Part shown: positions 10,060 to 41,763 of the stretch, one piece after another
Layout of the letters: each line of letters starts with the position of its first letter
Position numbering within the stretch: the stretch's first letter is position 1
Source of the DNA: Deltaproteobacteria bacterium TL4
GTDB lineage: Bacteria > SAR324 > NAC60-12
Direction of reading: 5' to 3'
Length of the DNA stretch: 64,000 nt
Assembly (NCBI GenBank): GCA_051382335.1
Contig: JBBCAX010000033.1
Coordinates: forward strand, 49,123-113,122
Made by a program: the position numbers and the translations under genes
Notes under the pieces: generated by a model
Database searches by the model: none
Told to the model about the DNA's origin: nothing
What the model saw: the letters and a program-made list of their open reading frames with translations, nothing else

Positions 10060-10376
10060 TTCTTTTCTCCAAGATATGTTTTCTCCAACCGTTTCAACGG
10101 ATGAAAATTAACGTTAACGGATACAGATGATTCGACACATGACCCTAGTATTTTTTGAGCAATAAAAAACATTCATCAGAATGTCAAATTCTTTTTCTAA
10201 AACAAAATCAAAAATAACTTGAAACCCTCATTGATTCTCAATACTAACAATAAAAGGCCATTGTCTAGCTAAAAATACGAACAAAAAAATCCTTGTCTTT
10301 GGAGTTTTTTCCTCGTTAATAGAATTAGGGTATGGATTTTACCCACATTCTCACGGCATGTAATTTAGTGTTTCAG

Positions 10377-10453
10377 AAAAGTATTTTGGGCTGGGAGCGC
10401 AGGCGTCCCGCCTGCTTTTGCGGGCAGGATGCCCGTATTCCCAGGAAAAACTT
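10377..10453. repeat. palindromic dispersed repeat element, copy A (~75 bp)
   Basis: Imperfect palindrome with GGCGTCCCGCCTGCTTTTGCGGGCAGGATGCC at its core. It shares about 85% identity with the copies at 10481-10554 and 20314-20386. Confidence 0.8.
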
Positions 10454-10480
10454 ATCTGAAAGTCTATAGTTGTCCAGATA

Positions 10481-10554
10481 AATTTCTGTTGGGAACGCAG
10501 GCGTCCCGCCTGCTTTTGCGGGCAAGATGCCTGCGTTCCCAGGACAAAACTTTT
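10481..10554. repeat. palindromic dispersed repeat element, copy B
   Basis: GGGAACGCAGGC / GCCTGCGTTCCC perfect 12-bp outer arms flank the inner CCCGC-loop-GCGGG hairpin. This is the best-preserved copy. Confidence 0.85.
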
Positions 10555-10597
10555 CTGGAGAAGTAGACACACGATCCCTAGCAACGAGATTCATGGA

Positions 10598-11546
10598 ATG
10601 TGTACAATTCGTCTGGGTTTATTAGGGCTGATTTTTGTAATCAGTCTTGTTGCCACCATTTTCGCTCAAGAGGAACCGGTAAGCGAAGGTAAAGGGGAAG
10701 GTCAAATTTGTGCCCTTTTCAAGCCAGGTGTCGAATGTCCAGGTGAAGCGGGTCTTTCACAGGCAGAAGCCGTTGCTTTGGCATCCCTCATGCGAAACGC
10801 TGAATTTGGGGTAGGTGAAGTCCTGGGCGCTTCGGATGAAGAGGGGGGGGGGAAGTGGGGACGATAAAGGCAAAAAAGGAGGAGCGGGAACCACTACCGG
10901 CAGTGTTGGAACCAACTTTGGTTATTCAGAAAGCGTCCAACTCTTTATGTTTCCGTTCTCCTATTCGCTAACGCAGACAATCCAAATTTCCGCTAATTTT
11001 CCATTCATTCGCGTGGAAAACGTCGAAGGAATGGGGAATCCTTCTGTATCTATGAAAGTATTTTATTCCTTCTTTGGTTTTTCAGCGTTGACTTCCGTGA
11101 CTTCCAAACTTCCCGTTGGTGATGAAGAACTCGGCGCGCGTCAAGACACCAATGATTATGTCTTTAGTCAAACGCTCCTTAGGGACATGGGCTTTTCCCG
11201 AATTTTTGGTAATTATACTTATATGTACATTCCTCAAGGCGAAAGCGACATTGATGTTGGCGATGTTTCTATGGGGATGTTGGGGCTGGATATGCCCTTG
11301 CCCTTGGGAGACAAGATTAATGTTTATGGTGCTCTTTTTTCAAGCCAGAACTTTGCTGATAAAAACGGGGATGGAAATCGGATTTGGGATACCCAGCAGA
11401 TTACGATGGATACCACGTTCGGTTTGGTATTTCGCGACATTAACTTAAGGACAGGGATTACAGTTCCTGTTTATACCTATTCCAAGCAAATAGAACACTC
11501 GGATCGTAGTCCTCTTTTTGACGTTGGATTTCGCTTTTCATTGTAA
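10598..11546 (+). pseudogene. outer-membrane beta-barrel protein gene interrupted by a frameshift at a G10 homopolymer (possibly phase-variable)
   Basis: ORF 10598-10867 encodes a signal peptide (MCTIRLGLLGLIFVISLVATIFAQ) and runs into ...EEGGGKWGR*. ORF 10815-11546 is in the +1 frame; it continues GGSGDDKGKK... and ends in a beta-barrel-like C-terminus (...FDVGFRFSL). The two frames meet at GGGGGGGGGG (10843-10852). Confidence 0.55.
10843..10852. repeat. poly-G homopolymeric tract (10 G)
   Basis: Counted directly from the sequence: gaaGAGGGGGGGGGGAAGTGGGG. Confidence 0.9.
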
Positions 11547-11615: not shown

Positions 11616-14600
11616 ATGAAGATAAAAGCGTACACGATTTTGCAATTCTTGTTCTTGTTATTCCTGAGTGCACTCTTCGTTTCAAGTTGTGGAGAAGACA
11701 AAAAAGAGAGGCCCAATGATGGGGCTGTCGACAGCCGTATTACTTTTGAACTCCGTTGGCCTGATACTTCCAGTAGTTCAGCAACTGCGTCGCAATACCG
11801 GATTTTTCCCATTCCTTCTAACGTGGATACCGTTCGGATGGTGGTATTAAACGCGGCAGGAGAGATAGCCCGGAGCGGTGCTGGAGATCTTTTGGAAAAA
11901 GATTTTGATTCAAATACAGGTGTAGGTTTTGTGGAGGGCGTTCCCGCTGGTGAGGGCTACACAGTACGTTTTGTCGCCTTTGACTCTCAATCTTTTCCAA
12001 GATATCGTGCCGCTCGCGAAGAGGTGACGGTTGTCGCAAACACCACCACCAAGCTGGGAACGATTGATATGGATGTGGCCCACGTGAACTCTTCCGCGGT
12101 AGTTACTAAAACTGTACAACCCGGAGAGCAATGTCCCTTTGGTGGAGTGCAAATTGAGATGGGGATTGATAGGGATGGCAGTGGTACTCTGGATGAAAAG
12201 GAAGTTACCAAATTCGAGGTGGTCTGTAATGGAATCAGAGGGCCAGTCGGAGCCAGTGGCGCAATTGGAGTCTCTACCCTGCTCAATATTGAAGAGATCC
12301 TCACAGACGATACTGAATGCGGAATACTGCACGGTAAAAAAATTGAGTATGGAAAAGACGATAATAACAATGGTATTCTGGAACCCGTGGAAGTGGATAC
12401 CACTTCCTACATTTGTAACGCAACGGCTCCCGGGCTGAGCATCAATAGAAGAAGTTTGTTTACCAACGAACTGGGAGCTTCAGACGGTTTTACGCTTCGC
12501 CTCAATTCAAAACCCACCAATGATGTGATCGTCAAGATCGAAAATTCCAATAGTAGCGAGGTAAAAGTATTTCCGGATCAAGTGGTTGTGACTCCAGATA
12601 ACTGGCAGGACAGTCAACCGGTAACGGTTACTGGCGTCAGAAATACAACAACCACCCAGGACCAAATCGTGCAATTGACTCTGAGCTTTGAGAGTGAAGA
12701 TGTGGTTTACAAGAAACTTGACCCGCTCAACGTCTCAGTCACTAATGTTCATATTGAACCTCCCGCAAAAGAATTTTCTTCCCACAATGAGCTGGTTTCA
12801 ACGCTGGCCGGTTCTTTCACGGAGGATGACATTAAATTATTTGATGGAATCGTCAGGGGAGTGAATAACGGATACTACGACAACACCCTATATTTGTTTG
12901 CCACTGATTCCAACAATCACATTGTTTACAGAATTAACATCAATACCCATGTTATTGAAGTTTATGTGGGTAAAAAAGGATTTTCAGGAAATGGGGTTGG
13001 GAGCGCTACCAATTCCCGGTTTAAAAACCCAAGAGGAATCACCATCGATAGCAGTACCGGGTTTTTATATGTGGTGGACTCCGGAAACGGAAGGATTATC
13101 AGGATTGATACCGATACTCCCACCGCCGGTACGACTGCCCTTGTAAATATGTCTGGTTCTCTGAATGAGCCTTGGGGCATCACGCTTAGGCAAGGCACCC
13201 TTAATATTACTGAAATTGGTGCTCATCGTGTGAGGACACTTTCCACAGCCGGAGGATCTCTTGGAGTCCTTGCAGGGGATGCTGTTGGTTATGCCGATGG
13301 TTCTGGAGGATCAGCCCGTTTTAACAAACCCAAGGGAATCCACTTTGATGGAACTAACTTTTTTGTGGCGGACTCTGGAAATCATGCTATCCGACAAATT
13401 ACTCTAGCTGGCGTTGTCACTACCGTTGCCGGAATAGGAACGACTGCGGGTGCCAAAGATGGTGACCGTGCTACAGCTCTGTTTGACACCCCTGTCGGAA
13501 TCACTGGTGATAGTACCTACCTTTATGTTTCCGCACAAGGGCAATATCCGCTGCGTAAAATCGAGAAAGGCAAAGGCGCAACTTCCACGTTAGTCCAATT
13601 TCAAGGCAGTTTAGATGGCGGCTCAAGTATCGCGAGGTTTAATGATCCATCGGCAATTTTGTGTGACGATAATACTCTGTATATCAGTACCTCCAATAGA
13701 TTTCGCAAGCTGGATCTCATTCAGGGAACAATCATCACCATGATTGGAAGATCCTCCACCAATGGTTCCGGTACCTCAGCCCGTTTTGACCGGCCTGTTA
13801 ACCTTGTCGCTGGTCCCAATGGCAAGATTATATACATTACGGACTATTACAATCACACGATCCGAACCATGAACCTCACCTCAAATGCGGTAGGTACCTT
13901 GGCTGGGGTTGCCGGAAAGGCAAGTACTACAGAGGCGGCTGTGGCACCTGGAAATCTCTTTTTTCCATGGGGCCTTACGTCAGATGGTACGTATCTTTAT
14001 GTGACTGAACCCAAAAGTCATACGATTCGCAGAGTCAGCATTGATACCGGTGTCACAAAAACCATTGGTGGTACCGCTTTTACCCACGGATCCTCTGAGG
14101 GAATTGGGACCACAGCCTTATTTAATACACCTTATGGCATTGCCACCGATCTGAAAAACCTGTATGTTGCCGATTCGGAAAACCACGTGATCCGGAAAAT
14201 GGATCTCCAAACGTTTCGTGTGAGTATCTTTGCTGGGGATCTCGGCACACCAGGATCATCTGGTGGCGTTTCGTCCGCCCAATTCAATCAACCTAAGGCT
14301 CTCACTAGCGATGGCGTCAACCTCTATGTCATCGATCAAAATGGAATCCGAATAGTGGAAATGTCATCAGGCAAAGTGAGTACAATTTCTGGAACTTCTG
14401 GTTTGAAGAACAGTCTTGGTCTTTCCTCAGACGGAATCAATCTTTATGTGAGTGATACTGATCATCATCAAGTTCAAAAAGTGGTGATTAAAACAGGGGC
14501 TATTGCTATTTTGGCAGGCAATAATAGTGAGGCCCTGAATACGGACACGGTTTGGGATTTAACCTATACTCCTATGATTACAACGCCCGCACGGTTTCAT

Positions 14601-19929: not shown

Positions 19930-20313
19930 CGTATTCCTTTGTTTCTAAGATCTTACTCACAAGATGGTTCTCAGCAGTTTGATTGATTTTTTAACGGTTG
20001 CGATTGATTCTTTAATGATGTTTTCTTCAAATTTCAACTTGCTGTAAATTTTCCTGTGATAGTAGAGTTTATGCGGCAATACTTTCAGGAAACCAGAGTT
20101 GCTGCCATTGATGGTTCAGTTCAACGGTTTTGAGAATAGCTAAGGCTTTGCTACCCTTTGGAATCCAACTATTATCATCGGGAAACTTCACTGATGCGCG
20201 TAAATAGAAAACTCACTGGAGGAACATAAATCCCGAACACCTATGTACCGGTATATTTATTTCGTATTTGTATCGTTTTTACAAACCAAATATACCGGTA
20301 TAGTGCTCAAGAT

Positions 20314-20386
20314 AAGTTTTGTCCTGGGAACGCGGGCGTCCCGCCCACTTTTGCGGGCAAGATGCCGCGCTCCCGGGGAAAAACTT
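20314..20386. repeat. palindromic dispersed repeat element, copy C
   Basis: AAGTTTTGTCCTGGGAACGCGGGCGTCCCGCCCACTTTTGCGGGCAAGATGCCGCGCTCCCGGGGAAAAACTT. The outer arms AAGTTTTGTCCTGGG / CCCGGGGAAAAACTT are inverted. Confidence 0.8.
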
Positions 20387-20429
20387 TCCTGGACAGCTAT
20401 ATATAATAAGGTTAGGAGGAAAAAGGTCC

Positions 20430-20750
20430 ATGGATCATTCTAAGAGTGCAGATCAGATTAAACGCAACAAAACTCAGACTGAAATTAGAAAAGCTCATCA
20501 TCAAACCATGCAACGCTATCGCTCCAAACAACTCATTCAAAAAAAGAGGATTGAGGCATGGATTGAACAACCCCAGTGTTTGGAAATTCTCAAAACACAA
20601 GCAGGACTCAATCAAATTCAAGTGATTAATCAGATCCTGCTCCTTGTTTCTGATGGCGTGAGTCGAGAATTCTTTAAAACGCCACAACAAGCAAAGACAA
20701 ATGCTGAGTGTATGATGAACCAATTAGTCGAAGTTTTTCAAAAATTATAA
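20430..20750 (+). CDS. hypothetical protein
   Basis: ORF 20319-20750 trimmed to the ATG at 20430, which is preceded by AGGAGG. The upstream part of the ORF reads through palindromic repeat copy C. Confidence 0.3.
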   Translation: MDHSKSADQIKRNKTQTEIRKAHHQTMQRYRSKQLIQKKRIEAWIEQPQCLEILKTQAGLNQIQVINQILLLVSDGVSREFFKTPQQAKTNAECMMNQLVEVFQKL

Positions 20751-21066
20751 TTTTTTCTCAATATGAAACTCTTGAGTTCGGAAAAACATAAACAATTTTT
20801 GAGAAATCAGACTCTGTGGGGAGATGTCCCAATATCTTGAATTCGTTCCAATGAATCAAGAATTTTTTCTAACGGAGGGGGTGCGTTTTTCGGCTGCCAC
20901 AGGGGTGCACTTTTCCCTTGCCATAATCATTCGGTTAGAGCATAACAAAATTGAAAAATGAGGAAGACCTCTTTCAAAATATTTTTTGTGCAACAACGCC
21001 ACCCTGATCTGAAAGTATCCTTAAGAGGCTAGTATAGTTAATGGCTTTAAAATCATAGTTTTATTT

Positions 21067-21312
21067 TTGATTATGGCAGGTTGCAGTGCTAGTGGTTATC
21101 ACTACGATAGCAATGCTTTAAATAGTGGAACTGGTATGCATTTACCTTTTCCTAATTTTACTGGGTCTGGTGAATTTTACATGTGTAGGTGGCGATCACC
21201 AGATGGATACGAGAGAGCGGATGAGTTTGGTTCTGTTGAGGAGTGCAACCAGCGCCTTTTTGATAAGTACAAGAAGGAAATAAACTGTAACTGTCGACTC
21301 GAAAAACGGTGA
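21067..21312 (+). CDS. hypothetical small Cys-containing protein
   Basis: 81-aa ORF with a TTG start. It lies in an AT-rich, gene-poor stretch, so the call is doubtful. Confidence 0.2.
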   Translation: MIMAGCSASGYHYDSNALNSGTGMHLPFPNFTGSGEFYMCRWRSPDGYERADEFGSVEECNQRLFDKYKKEINCNCRLEKR

Positions 21313-21846
21313 ATCGCTTTTTGTGTAATGAGACCCATCTATGGGGTTTTTAGAACTCTGCTGGGATGATGAAACTGAATATCATCCGGTGTCCCGTAAT
21401 TGATCCGTATTTACTGCCTTATAATTAAGGCTGTCTCTCTTGATCTCAAAGCAATTTTTTACTTTTAAAAAGAAGCTGTAAACTTTACCGATTTTTTGTG
21501 TTTTTATCTTTGAAGTATTCGGTTGTAGAATTGAAATGACTTGTTTTTGTGGAGTAAGAATCGTTTCTTGTTTTGAGGGAGAGGGCGATTGTTCAGAGAT
21601 TTCGCGAGGCTTTCGATACTGATCAGCCAACATTTTTCTTTTCGCATGTGCGGATTTTCCCAAGTTTTTCTGCCGCTAATCACTAGGATCTGTCGCTTTG
21701 GTGTGAAGCATGGCCTGGTAAATCACCGAGGGGGTGGTGGGTGCTGCTATTGCGGCAGCGACCAAAATAAAGGTGGTAAATCCGCTTTTATTATGAAGGC
21801 CTTGCCTGGCCTTTAATTTGCCAAAGGTGGATTCAAGGCTTTCGAG

Positions 21847-21999
21847 CTGTGCAGGTGGTTTGAAAATTAACCACGAAAAACACGAAAAACACGAAATAAA
21901 TGATTTTTTAATAAATGAATTCCTCCGTGAAACCCTATTTTGCAGGTTTTATTTCGTGTTTTTAGTGTTTTTCGTGGTTAAAAAAAGGTACCTGCACAG
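21847..21999. repeat. MITE-like element: ~52-bp terminal inverted repeats around a ~47-bp centre
   Basis: The left arm is CTGTGCAGGTGGTTTGAAAATTAACCACGAAAAACACGAAAAACACGAAATAAA. The right arm is TTTATTTCGTGTTTTTAGTGTTTTTCGTGGTTAAAAAAAGGTACCTGCACAG, which is its near-exact reverse complement. The 9-bp unit CACGAAAAA is tandemly tripled inside each arm. Confidence 0.7.
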
Positions 22000-22021
22000 G
22001 TGGCAATTATTTACTTAAATG

Positions 22022-30905: not shown

Positions 30906-30967
30906 ATAAATAGTTATTCGAGGGACATTTCCCTTGATAAATAGTTATTCGAGGGACATTTCCCTTG
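30906..30967. repeat. perfect 31-bp tandem direct duplication (ATAAATAGTTATTCGAGGGACATTTCCCTTG x2)
   Basis: Read directly from the sequence. It lies between the response-regulator gene and the PAS/kinase genes on the same strand. Confidence 0.9.
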
Positions 30968-38289: not shown

Positions 38290-41200
38290 ATGGTCATTAT
38301 GGAAAGATTTTTCGTAAAAATCGTACTAATTCTACTCAGTTTGCTAATCCCTCTTTGGTTTGTTGCTTGTGAGGGCAAAAAGAATGACTCGACAGATCCC
38401 AAAAATGCTGCTGAGGCGACTGGTGTCATTACTGGGATTATCAAAGATACCTCGACGAATAAACCCCTGAAAGGTGTCGTGATCTCTGCGGTGGCTGGAG
38501 AGGCTACTTTTACCGCGGAATCTGCCATCGATGGTAGCTTTATTCTGGAAATAAAACCGGTTCAAAGGACGGATGGTTATGATGTTCAGTTTTCCAAAGA
38601 GGGGTATGAAGCGGCTACAAAATCTGCGGTTTTCGATCTGCCAAATTTGCGGGTGGAGTTGGGAACGGTACTCTTGACTCCGGTCAGCACTGAGAAGACT
38701 CCCTCTGGCAAAATTATTGGTCTTGTCAAGGATTCAGCTACCATTAAAGGTATAGCTGGAGTCAAAGTCTCCGTAGATGTTAAAGGGACCATCGTCACTA
38801 CCGATACTGACTTAACGGGTGCCTTCACACTAGAGGTGAAGGGAGCACAGGCAGGAGAAGGTTATAGTGTGCAATTCTCAAAAGATGGATATCAGAATGC
38901 GACAAGAGCCGCCAGCTTTGATCAAAAATTGGAAGTGGATTTGGACGTTGTTTCTCTAACCCCGTCCACAACAAGTGTCACTTCAGGGGGTACCACTTCA
39001 GGGGGTACCACTTCAGGAGGGACTACTTCAGGAGGGACTACTTCAGGGGGGACTACTTCAGGGGGGACTACTTCAGGAGGGACTACTTCAGGAGGGACCA
39101 CTTCAGGGGGGACTACTTCAGGAGGGACTACTTCAGGAGGAGACGCTTCGGAAGATGTCATCGAACCCACAATCAAGACAGGTGTGATCCAGGGGACAAT
39201 TAAGGATAACTCGGGTAGTCCACTGAAAGAGGTACAAATATTTTTAAGTATTGGAACTTCCACACTTAATATGAAATCGGGAGTCGATGGTACTTTTTCC
39301 ATGAGTGTTGAAGGCGTTCAAGAAAATGAAAATTACAAAATTGCCTTTAGTAAAGAAGGCTATGAAAAAAATTCACAGGTGATCAGTTTTGATACCTCCG
39401 ATTTGAAAGTCGACATGGCAACGGTTTCCTTGACTAACGAGGATATCACACCTGTAGAAACGCACGCAGGTCAACTGACCGGGATTGTTAAAGATGTTGT
39501 TTCTGGAAATCCCCTGGAAGGGGCAAAAATATATGTATTTGTCAATGATCTCTATTACGCTGCGTCGGGAGTTGATGGCGCGTTCGCACTGGAATTAAAT
39601 GGAATCCAGGATGCCGCGGCTTCTGCGATTCTGATTAAAAAAACAGGATATCAAGACTTCAGTAATACGATCCTTTTTGCCTCACCCACTTATAATTTGG
39701 AAATGGGAGTTGTTTCCTTATCTCCAGTTCAGGTGGTAGCCGAAAAGAAAATTGTGGGTACGGTCATTGACAGTTTTTCCGCTTCCGGTTTGGCCAATGT
39801 CTTGGTAACCGTTCAAGATTCAAAGTCAGCAACCAAGACGGCTCTTACCAACGAGAATGGGGAATTCAGTATTTCTGGAAAAGATTTTTATCTGGAGAGT
39901 TCTTATACACTGAGTCTGACCAAAACCAATTATGTCGAACGTTCTGATGTCAGCGTAACGATCAGCGGGGATACAAACCTCATTGATAAAAGTATTGTTC
40001 GACTTTATAAGCAAGCTGGAAAAATTAGTGGCGATATCAAGGATGAGGCTACAGGTACTCCTCTAAAAGATACGGTTGTAACCGCTACGGACAGCCTGGG
40101 CGCTGAAGTCTCGGCAACGACAGACGCACAGGGGCACTTCACACTGGCAAGCGATTACTTCCTTTTGGGAGAAACTTATCAGGTTGTTGTTTCCGGAGGT
40201 TCTGATTTTCACCCTACGCAAACCAGTGTTAAGATTTCTACAACGTCGGATCAATCGCCGAATCTCATTAGTGAGGTTACGCTTTTGAAACCTGTCAGTG
40301 TATCCGGAATCGTCAAAGACACTAACGGAAATCCCATTTCTAATCTTAAGGTAACTGTTGAGGGACTTCCGGATGAGGTCATCACGGATGGTGAGGGCAA
40401 GTTCACGCTTTCTGGGACAAGCTATCTGAGAAACACGGCCTATAAACTGACATTTACGAAAGAAGGTTATACTTCTGAAACAGTAACCTCCTCACTCCTT
40501 GGTACTGGGGTAAACATCATGGGTGATATCCAACTTGCGGCTGAAGTCACAACGCCTCCCGTGGAACAACCCTCTTCTGGCTGGAGGAGCCTTTCCGGAA
40601 AAGTCGTTGATTACTGGAAAGATGCGATAGGTTTGAGTCCGACCGCGCTTCAGGATGCCACTGTGAAAGTGACAGACGATGGCACTGCCATCCGTTCTGA
40701 TCTAACCGATGCGAATGGAAGTTTTGAAATCAGTGGAAATTTTACTGTCGCAAAAAATTATACGCTGACTATTAGCAAAAGTGGTTTTACCGGAACTCAG
40801 GAAATGGAGCTAAAATCGGAGGTAACAATGGGCAACGCTCCTTATACATCAGGAACATTCGCCCTCTATCCTCTTGGTGTGTTTACTAAACTCAAACGAT
40901 CCACGGATAGTAGTTCAACTGAACTCAATTTGAATCAACAGTTGAAACAGACTTATGAAAAATTTCTCACCGGCAAAACAGGTTTTACCTTATCGGCCCG
41001 GGATGATAACGATCTGAATAAGGCCAACACCTTCTATATCCATCTGGATGACAGTTCTTTTCCCTCTTCATTACCCAGTGGTTTGGGCAAGCATTCCAAT
41101 TACCTGGCAGTGGGCGGAGCCCAGAAAAAAGGTGCCTTGACGGAAGGCCTCGGCAGTGACTCCCGAATTACAAATACTCAATGGGAAGGAACTACCACAA

Positions 41201-41763
41201 ACTGGGGTTTGAAGAATTTTGTATTGTATCACTTTTATGCGGCTCAGGCTGGGACTTATACCATTGAAACTACCAGTTCCACCGATACTGTTCTGATTCT
41301 CTATGATGCCTCAGGTACTAAAAAGATTGAAGATGACAATAGCGGTACCGACAAAAACGCAAAAATAACCTATACGGTGCAATCTTCTGACTCAGGTAGT
41401 TGGTATTTTGTCCAGGTTAAAGGCGCGAATGACAGTACTTTTGGTCTTTTCGAGATCCAGGTATCAGGACCTGAACTTTCAGCTCAGATAACCACTTTGC
41501 CGCAAACGTGGGATACCACTACTGCCGATAAAGGAATTGTCCTTTCCTGGTATGATCAGGCTTATCATAAGCTTTATATTGCCGCTCCTGATGAAAGCGT
41601 TTCTTCCGGTTCTATTACGATCAGCCATTTTGGTGCTATTGGAAAAATTGTCCGAGGGCAATTCCCCAAAGAGGGTTCTGATGGCGTCATGCGAGCGGTA
41701 GACGACAGTGGGGCAACCGTTGAGATTCAAAAAGGTTATTTCAACATTCTAAGAAGCGAGTAG
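38290..41763 (+). CDS. surface lipoprotein with ~12 carboxypeptidase-regulatory-like (CarboxypepD_reg/Cna-B-like) repeats, a (GGTTS)n linker and a C-terminal PPC (pre-peptidase C-terminal) domain
   Basis: It has a lipobox (LWFVAC). There are about 12 repeated modules of roughly 90 aa (G.I.G.VKD..T..PL.GV.V...G....T...G.F.L), each ending in Y.V.FSKEGY-type strands. The C-terminal domain has PPC-like features ([17 protein letters not shown]...WYFVQVKG). Confidence 0.7.
38984..39141 (+). repeat. 15-bp in-frame tandem repeat (~10 units) encoding (GGTTS)n
   Basis: The units GGTACCACTTCAGGG / GGGACTACTTCAGGA repeat head-to-tail. The minus-strand ORF here translating to (PPEVV)n is antisense noise. 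Confidence 0.85.

Follow-up and report, generated by a model that had tools for sequence, protein, structure and literature searches.

A REPIN consists of two inverted repetitive extragenic palindromic (REP) sequences that together form a hairpin (89 bp in one example), in which the ends are conserved and the spacers vary; beyond the single REPIN, the arrangement seen most often is a tandem array, and mobilisation of REPINs by a single-copy REP-associated tyrosine transposase (RAYT) has been proposed (PMC3337134, PMC3116915, PMC5581495). The REPs of Pseudomonas read GTGGGAGGGGGCTTGC and similar, that is, GTGGGAG followed by a GC palindrome (PMC3116915, Table 1). In addition, tagged REPs have been catalogued in more than 80 species from 8 phyla, including bacteria of the Planctomycetes-Verrucomicrobia-Chlamydiae (PVC) group and all proteobacterial divisions (Di Nocera et al. 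2013, PMC3733652), where they are found as head-to-head (HH) dimers with the tags outside, as heterodimers and as dimers tandemly reiterated together with flanking DNA. Here we describe a GC-rich palindromic repeat of about 100 nt that occurs three times in a 64,000-nt stretch of DNA from Deltaproteobacteria bacterium TL4 (assembly GCA_051382335.1, contig JBBCAX010000033.1, positions 49,123 to 113,122), referred to below as the window, and compare it with these systems.

Our analysis suggests, with a probability of roughly 0.6, that the three elements are copies of a REP-doublet (REPIN-like) or HH-dimer repeat family, and that the repeat is an ordinary kind of feature, a small REP/REPIN-type hairpin repeat, rather than a novel regulatory RNA. 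The presence of three GC-rich palindromic repeats, pointed out in an earlier note made from the letters of the sequence, was borne out by de novo repeat finding, which placed them in one direct-repeat family (D2), as well as by reading the sequence. The 22-nt core GTCCCGCCNNCTTTTGCGGGCA has three matches in the window, all on the plus strand, where 0.00 are expected even with up to three mismatches. Sequence reading and alignment also agree with the core that the earlier note had quoted, GGCGTCCCGCC-(TG/CA)-CTTTTGCGGGCA(A/G)GATGCC, and with its nested inverted arms; the repeat length of ~75 bp given there has to be corrected, as the homology spans ~99–101 nt, out to the palindrome ends TAGTG...(C)TA. 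Neither nhmmer with a three-copy profile nor blastn with a word size of 7 found a fourth or degenerate copy in the 64 kb. The copies, with the folding energy of the plus-strand hairpin, are:

10366-10466, plus strand: copy 1, a ~100-nt palindrome TAGTG...GTCTA and the most degenerate copy; hairpin of -41.9 kcal/mol, z -5.1.
10467-10565, plus strand: copy 2, which adjoins copy 1 head-to-tail and has the best-paired hairpin; -46.8 kcal/mol, z -7.1.
20301-20399, plus strand: copy 3, with TA on both sides (20299-20300 and 20400-20401); -44.1 kcal/mol, z -5.1.

All three window copies share one orientation. Copies 1 and 2 abut directly at CTATAG, giving a tandem period of 98 nt. Copy 3 alone has TA as the dinucleotide on both flanks; copy 1 has TT on the left and TA on the right, copy 2 has TA and GA, and the TA itself belongs to the palindrome. 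Divergence among the copies amounts to 10–28%, with a near-invariant central stretch of 32 nt and less conserved outer arms, and the GC-rich repeat core of ~55 nt stands out against the window, in which GC averages 40–47%.

The suggestion of the earlier note that the repeat is similar to REPs or to bacterial interspersed mosaic elements (BIMEs) is supported and can be sharpened, since every palindrome proves to be a doublet, in which two REP-like hairpin units face each other in inverted orientation, 4 nt apart, within AT-rich inverted arms; the tandem array and the related doublets found elsewhere (see below) fit this description. A unit of ~25 nt consists of YTGGGARC, a GC stem of 6–7 bp, a loop of 3–5 nt and the return stem. 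The whole element is laid out as (YTGGGARC + hairpin) TTTT (hairpin + GYTCCCRG), with the conserved heptamers pointing outward and with AAGTTTTGTCC ... GGACAAAACTT as the AT-rich inverted arms. On the minus strand, every copy has a perfect GC stem of 5–7 bp followed by G(C/T)TCCCA (left arm, GCAGGCG-GGA-CGCCTGC type), and the right arm has the general form GCGGGCA-AGA-TGCC(T/C)GC, followed by GTTCCCAGG. In detail, the units, with the identity of the right-hand ones to units from metagenomes that are described further below, are:

10391-10415, minus strand: left unit of copy 1, GCAGGCG-GGA-CGCCTGC, then GCTCCCAG.
10420-10445, plus strand: right unit of copy 1, GCGGGCA-GGA-TGCCCGT, then ATTCCCAGG; 27–28 of 31 nt identical to the metagenome units.
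10489-10513, minus strand: left unit of copy 2, GCAGGCG-GGA-CGCCTGC-GTTCCCAA.
10518-10543, plus strand: right unit of copy 2, GCGGGCA-AGA-TGCCTGC-GTTCCCAGG; 29 of 31 nt identical to locus L006 and 28 of 31 to L008.
20324-20348, minus strand: left unit of copy 3, GTGGGCG-GGA-CGCCCGC-GTTCCCAG, in which one stem pair is changed from A-T to G-C relative to copies 1 and 2.
20353-20377, plus strand: right unit of copy 3, GCGGGCAAGATGCC-GCGCTCCCGGG; 29 of 32 nt identical to locus L050.

Left and right units differ in the loop, which is GTCCC in the former and the complement of AAGAT in the latter, and at one stem position. These differences are identical in all copies, which means that it was the whole doublet that was copied. 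The tag reads CTGG in four of the six arms, TTGG in one and CCGG in one.

Two folds are open to the ~100-nt element, a single long hairpin and a pair of small ones. The long hairpin comprises 22 consensus pairs over the three copies (RNAalifold), and folding of the minus strand as RNA gave -36.2, -46.9 and -47.6 kcal/mol for copies 1, 2 and 3, respectively, with z-scores between -4.2 and -7.7 over both strands and no consistent strand preference. An equally good alternative is the fold in which each arm forms its own small hairpin; its two local helices are 97.6% paired across the three copies and hold the one double change observed, from A-T to G-C in copy 3; with three sequences this does not reach significance (165 of 500 shuffles).

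A short imperfect palindromic unit of 20–40 nt, as is typical of REPs and REPINs, is thus present, with its GC stem and small loop, and two such units are inverted to form a long hairpin with the tags outward, which is the HH arrangement. Like the REPINs of Bertels & Rainey (2011), the element is a hairpin (~90–110 nt in REPINs) of two inverted imperfect palindromes, is extragenic, is copied as a doublet and occurs as a tandem of doublets, and its layout, in which a GC palindrome comes after a G-rich 5' tag, is similar to that of Pseudomonas GTGGGAGGGGGCTTGC. It differs from them in its spacer of 4 nt instead of typically 34–110, in the extra AT-rich inverted arms outside the units, in its tag, YTGG and not GTGG or GTAG, and in its host, the uncultured TL4, whose relatives include SAR324 metagenome-assembled genomes (MAGs), and not a gamma-proteobacterium. 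The GTAG REP families share with it a stem of 6–9 bp, a loop of 3–5 nt, an unpaired conserved motif at one end and the formation of HH dimers; heterodimers are known among them, and they are also found in PVC bacteria and delta-proteobacteria. However, as compared by tag and architecture, the window tag fits neither GTAG nor the listed degenerate forms GYAG, GYRG, GTRG, GTMG and GTGG (PMC3733652). For each of the REPIN-like peculiarities of the element there is a published precedent, including partners that are 1–5 bp apart in some families (Opitutus terrae GTAG-17) and dimers nested in longer AT-rich palindromes (Anabaena variabilis GTAG-15, of which the outer palindrome also starts with TATAG; PMC3733652); the one defining feature that fails is the tag.

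The BIMEs of E. coli are similar in that they are intergenic and combine inverted REPs into mosaics, often in tandem. They consist of alternating Y and Z REPs and defined linker motifs, and are mostly located between convergent or co-oriented genes. No E. coli-type REP was found in the window and BIMEs show no sequence similarity to the repeat. Correia elements, or NEMIS (Neisseria), and the enterobacterial ERIC are MITE-like (resembling miniature inverted-repeat transposable elements), non-coding intergenic inverted-repeat elements of ~100–150 nt which can alter the expression of neighbouring genes or the processing of their mRNA; Correia elements have a TA insertion site and 26-bp terminal inverted repeats around a non-palindromic interior. 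The window repeat has no known sequence similarity to these elements and is one whole hairpin of two REP-like units.

The earlier note named, among what would refute its reading, that the genome has only these three copies; a fourth, however, was found on another contig of TL4. It came to light when the six frames of copy 2 (208 aa) were used as a query against a collection of 5.8 billion proteins, which returned a single match, the hypothetical protein WDW89_19775 [Deltaproteobacteria bacterium TL4] (P0121), encoded on a separate contig of 41,268 nt. The C-terminus of this protein, RCPEKFFLGVLASCPQKQAGRLRSQQKFWTSI, represents the complete element with both arms, read in the minus-0 frame, whereas over its first ~105 residues the protein matches transposases of the ISKra4 family at their C-terminal end (NCBIfam NF033572, profile positions 307–410 of 422, E 9e-9). 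The element starts ~90 nt past the natural end of the ISKra4 fragment, and the sequence in between is non-homologous. This arrangement may be that of a repeat beside the remnant of an insertion sequence (IS), or may be a hint about the mobilising element. The TL4 genome therefore contains at least four copies on at least two contigs, a weak lower bound on the copy number, as the protein route detects only those copies that are annotated as ORFs.

Related units were also found outside TL4. An exact scan for the full core gave no match in GTDB species genomes, JGI metagenomes or IMG/VR, collections in which the TL4 genome is not included, and blastn in distant mode gave no match for the repeat in plasmid and phage collections. 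The right half-core CTTTTGCGGGCARGATGCC has 52 metagenome matches. About 20 of the 52 represent one conserved unrelated sequence (AATTGATCCAGG...TTAACTTATTAGCACG) and were discarded; another 12 continue with CGCGNTCCC, that is CGCG(N)TCCC, where the window copies continue with (C/T)GCGTTCCCAGG. The eight specified bases would agree by chance in less than one match in 10,000, and the right units of the window are identical to those metagenome units at 27–29 of 31 nt. The carrier contigs have 51–68% GC (loci L006, L008, L010, L011/L062, L024, L029, L030/L051 and L050). On them, the units form inverted pairs with the G(N)TCCCAGG tails outward, with conserved ends of ~30 nt around spacers that are unrelated to one another; L006 and L029, which come from one sample, have identical ends and different spacers of ~55 nt. 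Several unit variants are carried by L030/L051. The region at L051 2150–2800 and in L030 (62% GC) is a ~650-nt intergenic mosaic of variants of a hairpin plus GCTCCC, with the loops GGA, AGA and AGGG, and also has a duplicated segment containing ccgtgttcattcgtgta(a/c)tccgtggttaatcggttga.

One of these carriers is L011, a contig that is also represented by L063 and that matches L062. It comes from a Gemmataceae planctomycete, its helicase being 84–90% identical to those of Planctomycetaceae/Gemmataceae MAGs and 77% to that of Gemmata. In L062, the inverted units (12224–12246 and 12533–12555) are set 20 nt inward from the borders of a 374-nt segment (12204–12577) between convergent helicase and GDPD genes, and this segment has no counterpart in an 85%-identical relative (L065, 12195–12200), in which the helicase and GDPD genes overlap. 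A presence/absence difference of this sort is the kind expected for a mobile element. An ORF of 29 aa, which we regard as junk, has been called inside the segment.

The elements of the Gemmataceae contig and of the other carriers, with units of the form GCGGGCARGATGCCCGC-GNTCCC, share with the window the right unit (27–29 of 31 nt), including the CTTTT lead-in, the hairpin GCGGGC-ARGAT-GCC(C/T)GC and the G(N)TCCCAGG tail, as well as the outward direction of the tails in inverted pairs. They differ in that their spacers are ~55–290 nt long instead of 4 nt, that both units of a pair are identical, whereas the left unit of the window has a different loop and stem, and that their hosts belong to a different phylum with a much higher GC content. 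A literature text search of 8 million papers with the unit sequence strings gave no match, so the metagenome elements are apparently undescribed; a text search likewise found no literature on TL4 or on MITE-type repeats in SAR324. On the strength of the sequence similarity we tentatively propose, as a possibility that we rate as doubtful, that the ~31-nt unit CTTTTGCGGGCARGATGCCYGCGYTCCCAGG may represent one family common, in near-unchanged form, to TL4 (43% GC), Gemmataceae (60–68% GC) and other metagenomic bacteria. If so, this would be a widespread and apparently undescribed class of REPs, which would explain the recurrence of junk peptides such as AGKMPALP, QAGRLRSQ and RRDACAP in hypothetical proteins.

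If the window repeat is a REP doublet, it would be non-coding, non-autonomous DNA which is spreading, or once spread, as a single-stranded hairpin. The transposase responsible would act in trans, from a gene at another place in the genome, and would most likely be a REP-associated tyrosine (HUH/Y1) enzyme; both the mobility in TL4 and the type of transposase are what we infer here. Insertions would survive in permissive intergenic spacers, and local tandem reiteration would have given rise to the pair of copies 1 and 2. Any effect on flanking genes would then be a by-product, e.g. of a very stable hairpin in a 5' leader in case the element is transcribed.

There are however several points that weigh against this reading. 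REP/REPIN families have tens to hundreds of mostly extragenic copies per genome; of this repeat just four copies are documented, the three extragenic ones in 64 kb and the one on the other contig, so that a high copy number and an extragenic bias are at most presumed. The cognate RAYT of a REPIN family is a single-copy gene flanked by the same REPs; the window encodes no RAYT/Y1 transposase (no Y1_Tnp among its 29 ORFs, Pfam), and a tblastn search of the window and of loci L001–L060 with the RayT of E. coli gave nothing below an E-value of 0.04. The unpaired tag is YTGG (mostly CTGG), within a conserved YTGGGARC, and not the canonical GTAG/GTRG. Conservation in the window peaks in the centre of the element, whereas classic REPINs have conserved REPs around a long variable spacer. 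Given the divergence among the copies, activity, if the element is mobile, is not recent. Finally, the fourth copy adjoins a fragment of a DDE (ISKra4-family) transposase, which leaves room for a different mobilising enzyme.

In the window, copies 1 and 2 are located in the divergent spacer 10060–10597 and copy 3 in the divergent spacer 19930–20429. The gene to the left of copies 1 and 2 is indeed the collagen-like giant gene described in the earlier note (1511 aa, minus strand; Pfam Collagen and CarboxypepD_reg), and the right neighbour is an ORF on the plus strand that starts at 10598 and has a predicted N-terminal signal peptide. It had been labelled as an outer-membrane protein, for which we find no basis: the ORFs 10598–10867 and 10815–11546 have no Pfam or NCBIfam match. 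These two plus-strand ORFs, the first with the signal peptide, overlap in different frames, as would be the case if the gene of a secreted protein were frameshifted or mis-assembled. The spacer with copy 3 separates a minus-strand gene for AlkD-type DNA alkylation repair (Pfam E 1e-64) from a 106-aa ORF without a family. The AlkD protein is 100% identical to an entry of Deltaproteobacteria bacterium TL4 on a contig of 126,890 nt, its next homologue has 63% identity and several homologues come from SAR324 MAGs. In that nearest relative (AlkD 63%), the neighbourhood is different and the 20 kb examined contain no common repeat family; there is just one intergenic hairpin, at L058 14667–14700, which reads GTTGGGAGCAGG-GAGGCTC-CTGCTCCCAG and has a tag of the TGGGAGC type.

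Two minus-strand ORFs that had been called across copies 1 and 2, 10351–10584 and 10373–10594, are artefacts of the repeat, as was already suspected, for they read the same repeat in different frames and have no homologues:

10351-10594, minus strand: two overlapping spurious ORFs with the repeat-encoded peptides QAGRLRSQ, RRDACAP and NAGILPAKAGGTPAFP.

Such ORFs get called because the element has an almost open reading in each of the six frames; neither these ORFs nor homologues of them were found in the collection of 5.8 billion proteins.

Among the alternatives to a REP doublet, the one that survives best, although we regard it as unlikely, is a MITE derived from a DDE insertion sequence, either of the ISKra4 family or an IS630-like one inserting at TA, of which the arms would be fused terminal inverted repeats that were moved in trans. 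The palindrome does reach the ends TAGTG...CTA, the junction of copies 1 and 2 is CTATAG and there is a TA on either side of copy 3, but this clean TA flank is seen at copy 3 only and is part of the palindrome itself. The ISKra4-family fragment (NF033572, E 9e-9) ~90 nt before the fourth copy would also be in agreement with such an origin; however, the copy in P0121 holds both arms and not a single IS end, and the window contains no IS or transposase (Pfam). In addition, the complementarity runs through the whole element up to a loop of 4 nt, whereas fused IS ends would pair only at the termini, and conservation peaks at the centre and not at the ends. The arm 18-mer AAGTTTTGTCCTGGGAAC gave five chance matches in 185,579 species genomes, none of them with the partner arm or the core, and the related planctomycete elements have unrelated spacers between conserved ends, unlike deletion derivatives of one IS.

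It is very unlikely, in our view, that the repeat is a cis-acting structured RNA or a small RNA, that is, a hairpin which is transcribed on its own or as the 5' leader of the plus-strand genes at 10598 and 20430 and controls mRNA stability or translation. The common orientation of the window copies, which end 32–35 nt upstream of a plus-strand start codon, and the high stability of the hairpins would agree with this, yet for copies 2 and 3 the fold of the minus strand is as good as that of the plus strand or better, the genes downstream are not related to each other and match no family, and the fourth copy is located 3' of an oppositely oriented ORF that continues through it. G-U cells outnumber A-C mismatch cells on the plus strand (9 against 3), but most of the G-U cells are shared by descent and are not independent events. 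The RNAalifold covariation term is 0.01 and none of the 22 pairs shows a compensatory change, although three sequences are too few for a real test. The statement of the earlier note that the differences between copies partly preserve the pairing thus holds for one-sided G-U changes only, and no compensatory double change is found in the long hairpin. No Rfam 15 family matches the window at the gathering score, and at E<=10 only generic miRNA-precursor-like hairpins far below the threshold appear. Promoter-like and terminator-like sites occur around both loci at background frequency, and none lies on a repeat. Without an Rfam family, covariation or a consistent strand preference in folding energy, the small structured RNA that the earlier note had considered finds no support.

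Highly improbable, too, is a DNA site for a host protein, such as a nucleoid-associated protein, gyrase or a dedicated regulator, which would serve as an operator or insulator between divergent promoters and be kept by selection and not by transposition. E. coli BIMEs bind gyrase, integration host factor and DNA polymerase I, and both window loci are divergent promoter regions. The earlier note had seen a pattern in this divergent intergenic setting, which indeed applies to all three window copies, but these represent two loci and the bias is not significant (p ~0.13, from two independent loci and a tally of the ORF list in which divergent spacers make up ~37% of the intergenic DNA of the window); the fourth copy, in a different context, breaks the pattern. 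The near-invariant central 32 nt would suit a bound protein, and a conserved binding partner could account for a unit that is nearly identical across phyla; with 100 nt and a tandem arrangement, however, the element is far larger than an operator, and the related planctomycete copies occupy a spacer where two convergent genes have their 3' ends, and a close relative does without them. For none of these three alternatives is there positive evidence beyond position.

Other candidates can be dismissed briefly. An intrinsic bidirectional terminator, a GC-rich hairpin with a T-run right after it at the 3' ends of genes, is rejected as no copy has a terminator-like site and the copies lie at the 5' ends of both neighbours; an integron attC site needs RYYYAAC ... 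GTTRRRY, whereas the arms, TGGGAAC ... GTTCCCA, have purines at positions that call for pyrimidines, and the flanking genes are divergent and of housekeeping type, not cassettes. Inspected by eye, the repeat has the GG-N10-GC spacing of a sigma-54 promoter but CCGC instead of TTGC as the -12 element, and the GGAAC of an ECF sigma promoter but no CGT at the right spacing; TATAAT at the junction of copy 3 (20402–20407) has no usable -35 element that would make it a sigma-70 promoter.

Several further repeats were noticed in the window. Immediately 5' of copy 3, a small inverted repeat, CCGGTATATTT...AAATATACCGG (20249–20298), encloses the stretch 20255–20280. The latter is related to a 34-nt inverted repeat at 21867–21981, with 97% complementarity and 47 nt between the arms, of which each arm consists of three direct 9-nt units ACGAAAAAC and which lies just upstream of a glucose/sorbosone dehydrogenase-cytochrome c gene starting at 22000. 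The two bracket a block of small ORFs (20430–21816), which suggests an operator or iteron set. A 31-nt unit, ATAAATAGTTATTCGAGGGACATTTCCCTTG, is perfectly duplicated in tandem at 30906–30967, in the spacer between a PAS-domain gene and a response-regulator gene, and at least 11 tandem 15-nt units ACTTCAGGGGGGACT at 38950–39174, within the 1157-aa ORF 38290–41763, encode a short peptide repeat rich in Thr, Ser and Gly.

For the annotation of TL4, reading the repeat as a REP doublet means that two spurious ORFs are removed and that the GC-rich palindrome in two promoter regions is seen as selfish or relic repeat DNA and not as a regulator. For the biology of such repeats, it adds a REP-doublet family in a poorly sampled lineage, which is unusually compact, with units 4 nt apart, and nested in an AT-rich palindrome. 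The near-identity of one of its units to planctomycete repeats could point to an undescribed widespread class of REPs or to horizontal transfer. REPIN-RAYT systems are described as vertically inherited and lineage-specific, and near-identity across phyla, if true, would for this reason mean either horizontal transfer of a REP/transposase system or strong convergent constraint from a conserved partner that recognises the hairpin. Should the planctomycete link hold genome-wide, it would bear on the question of whether REP/REPIN systems are strictly vertically inherited.

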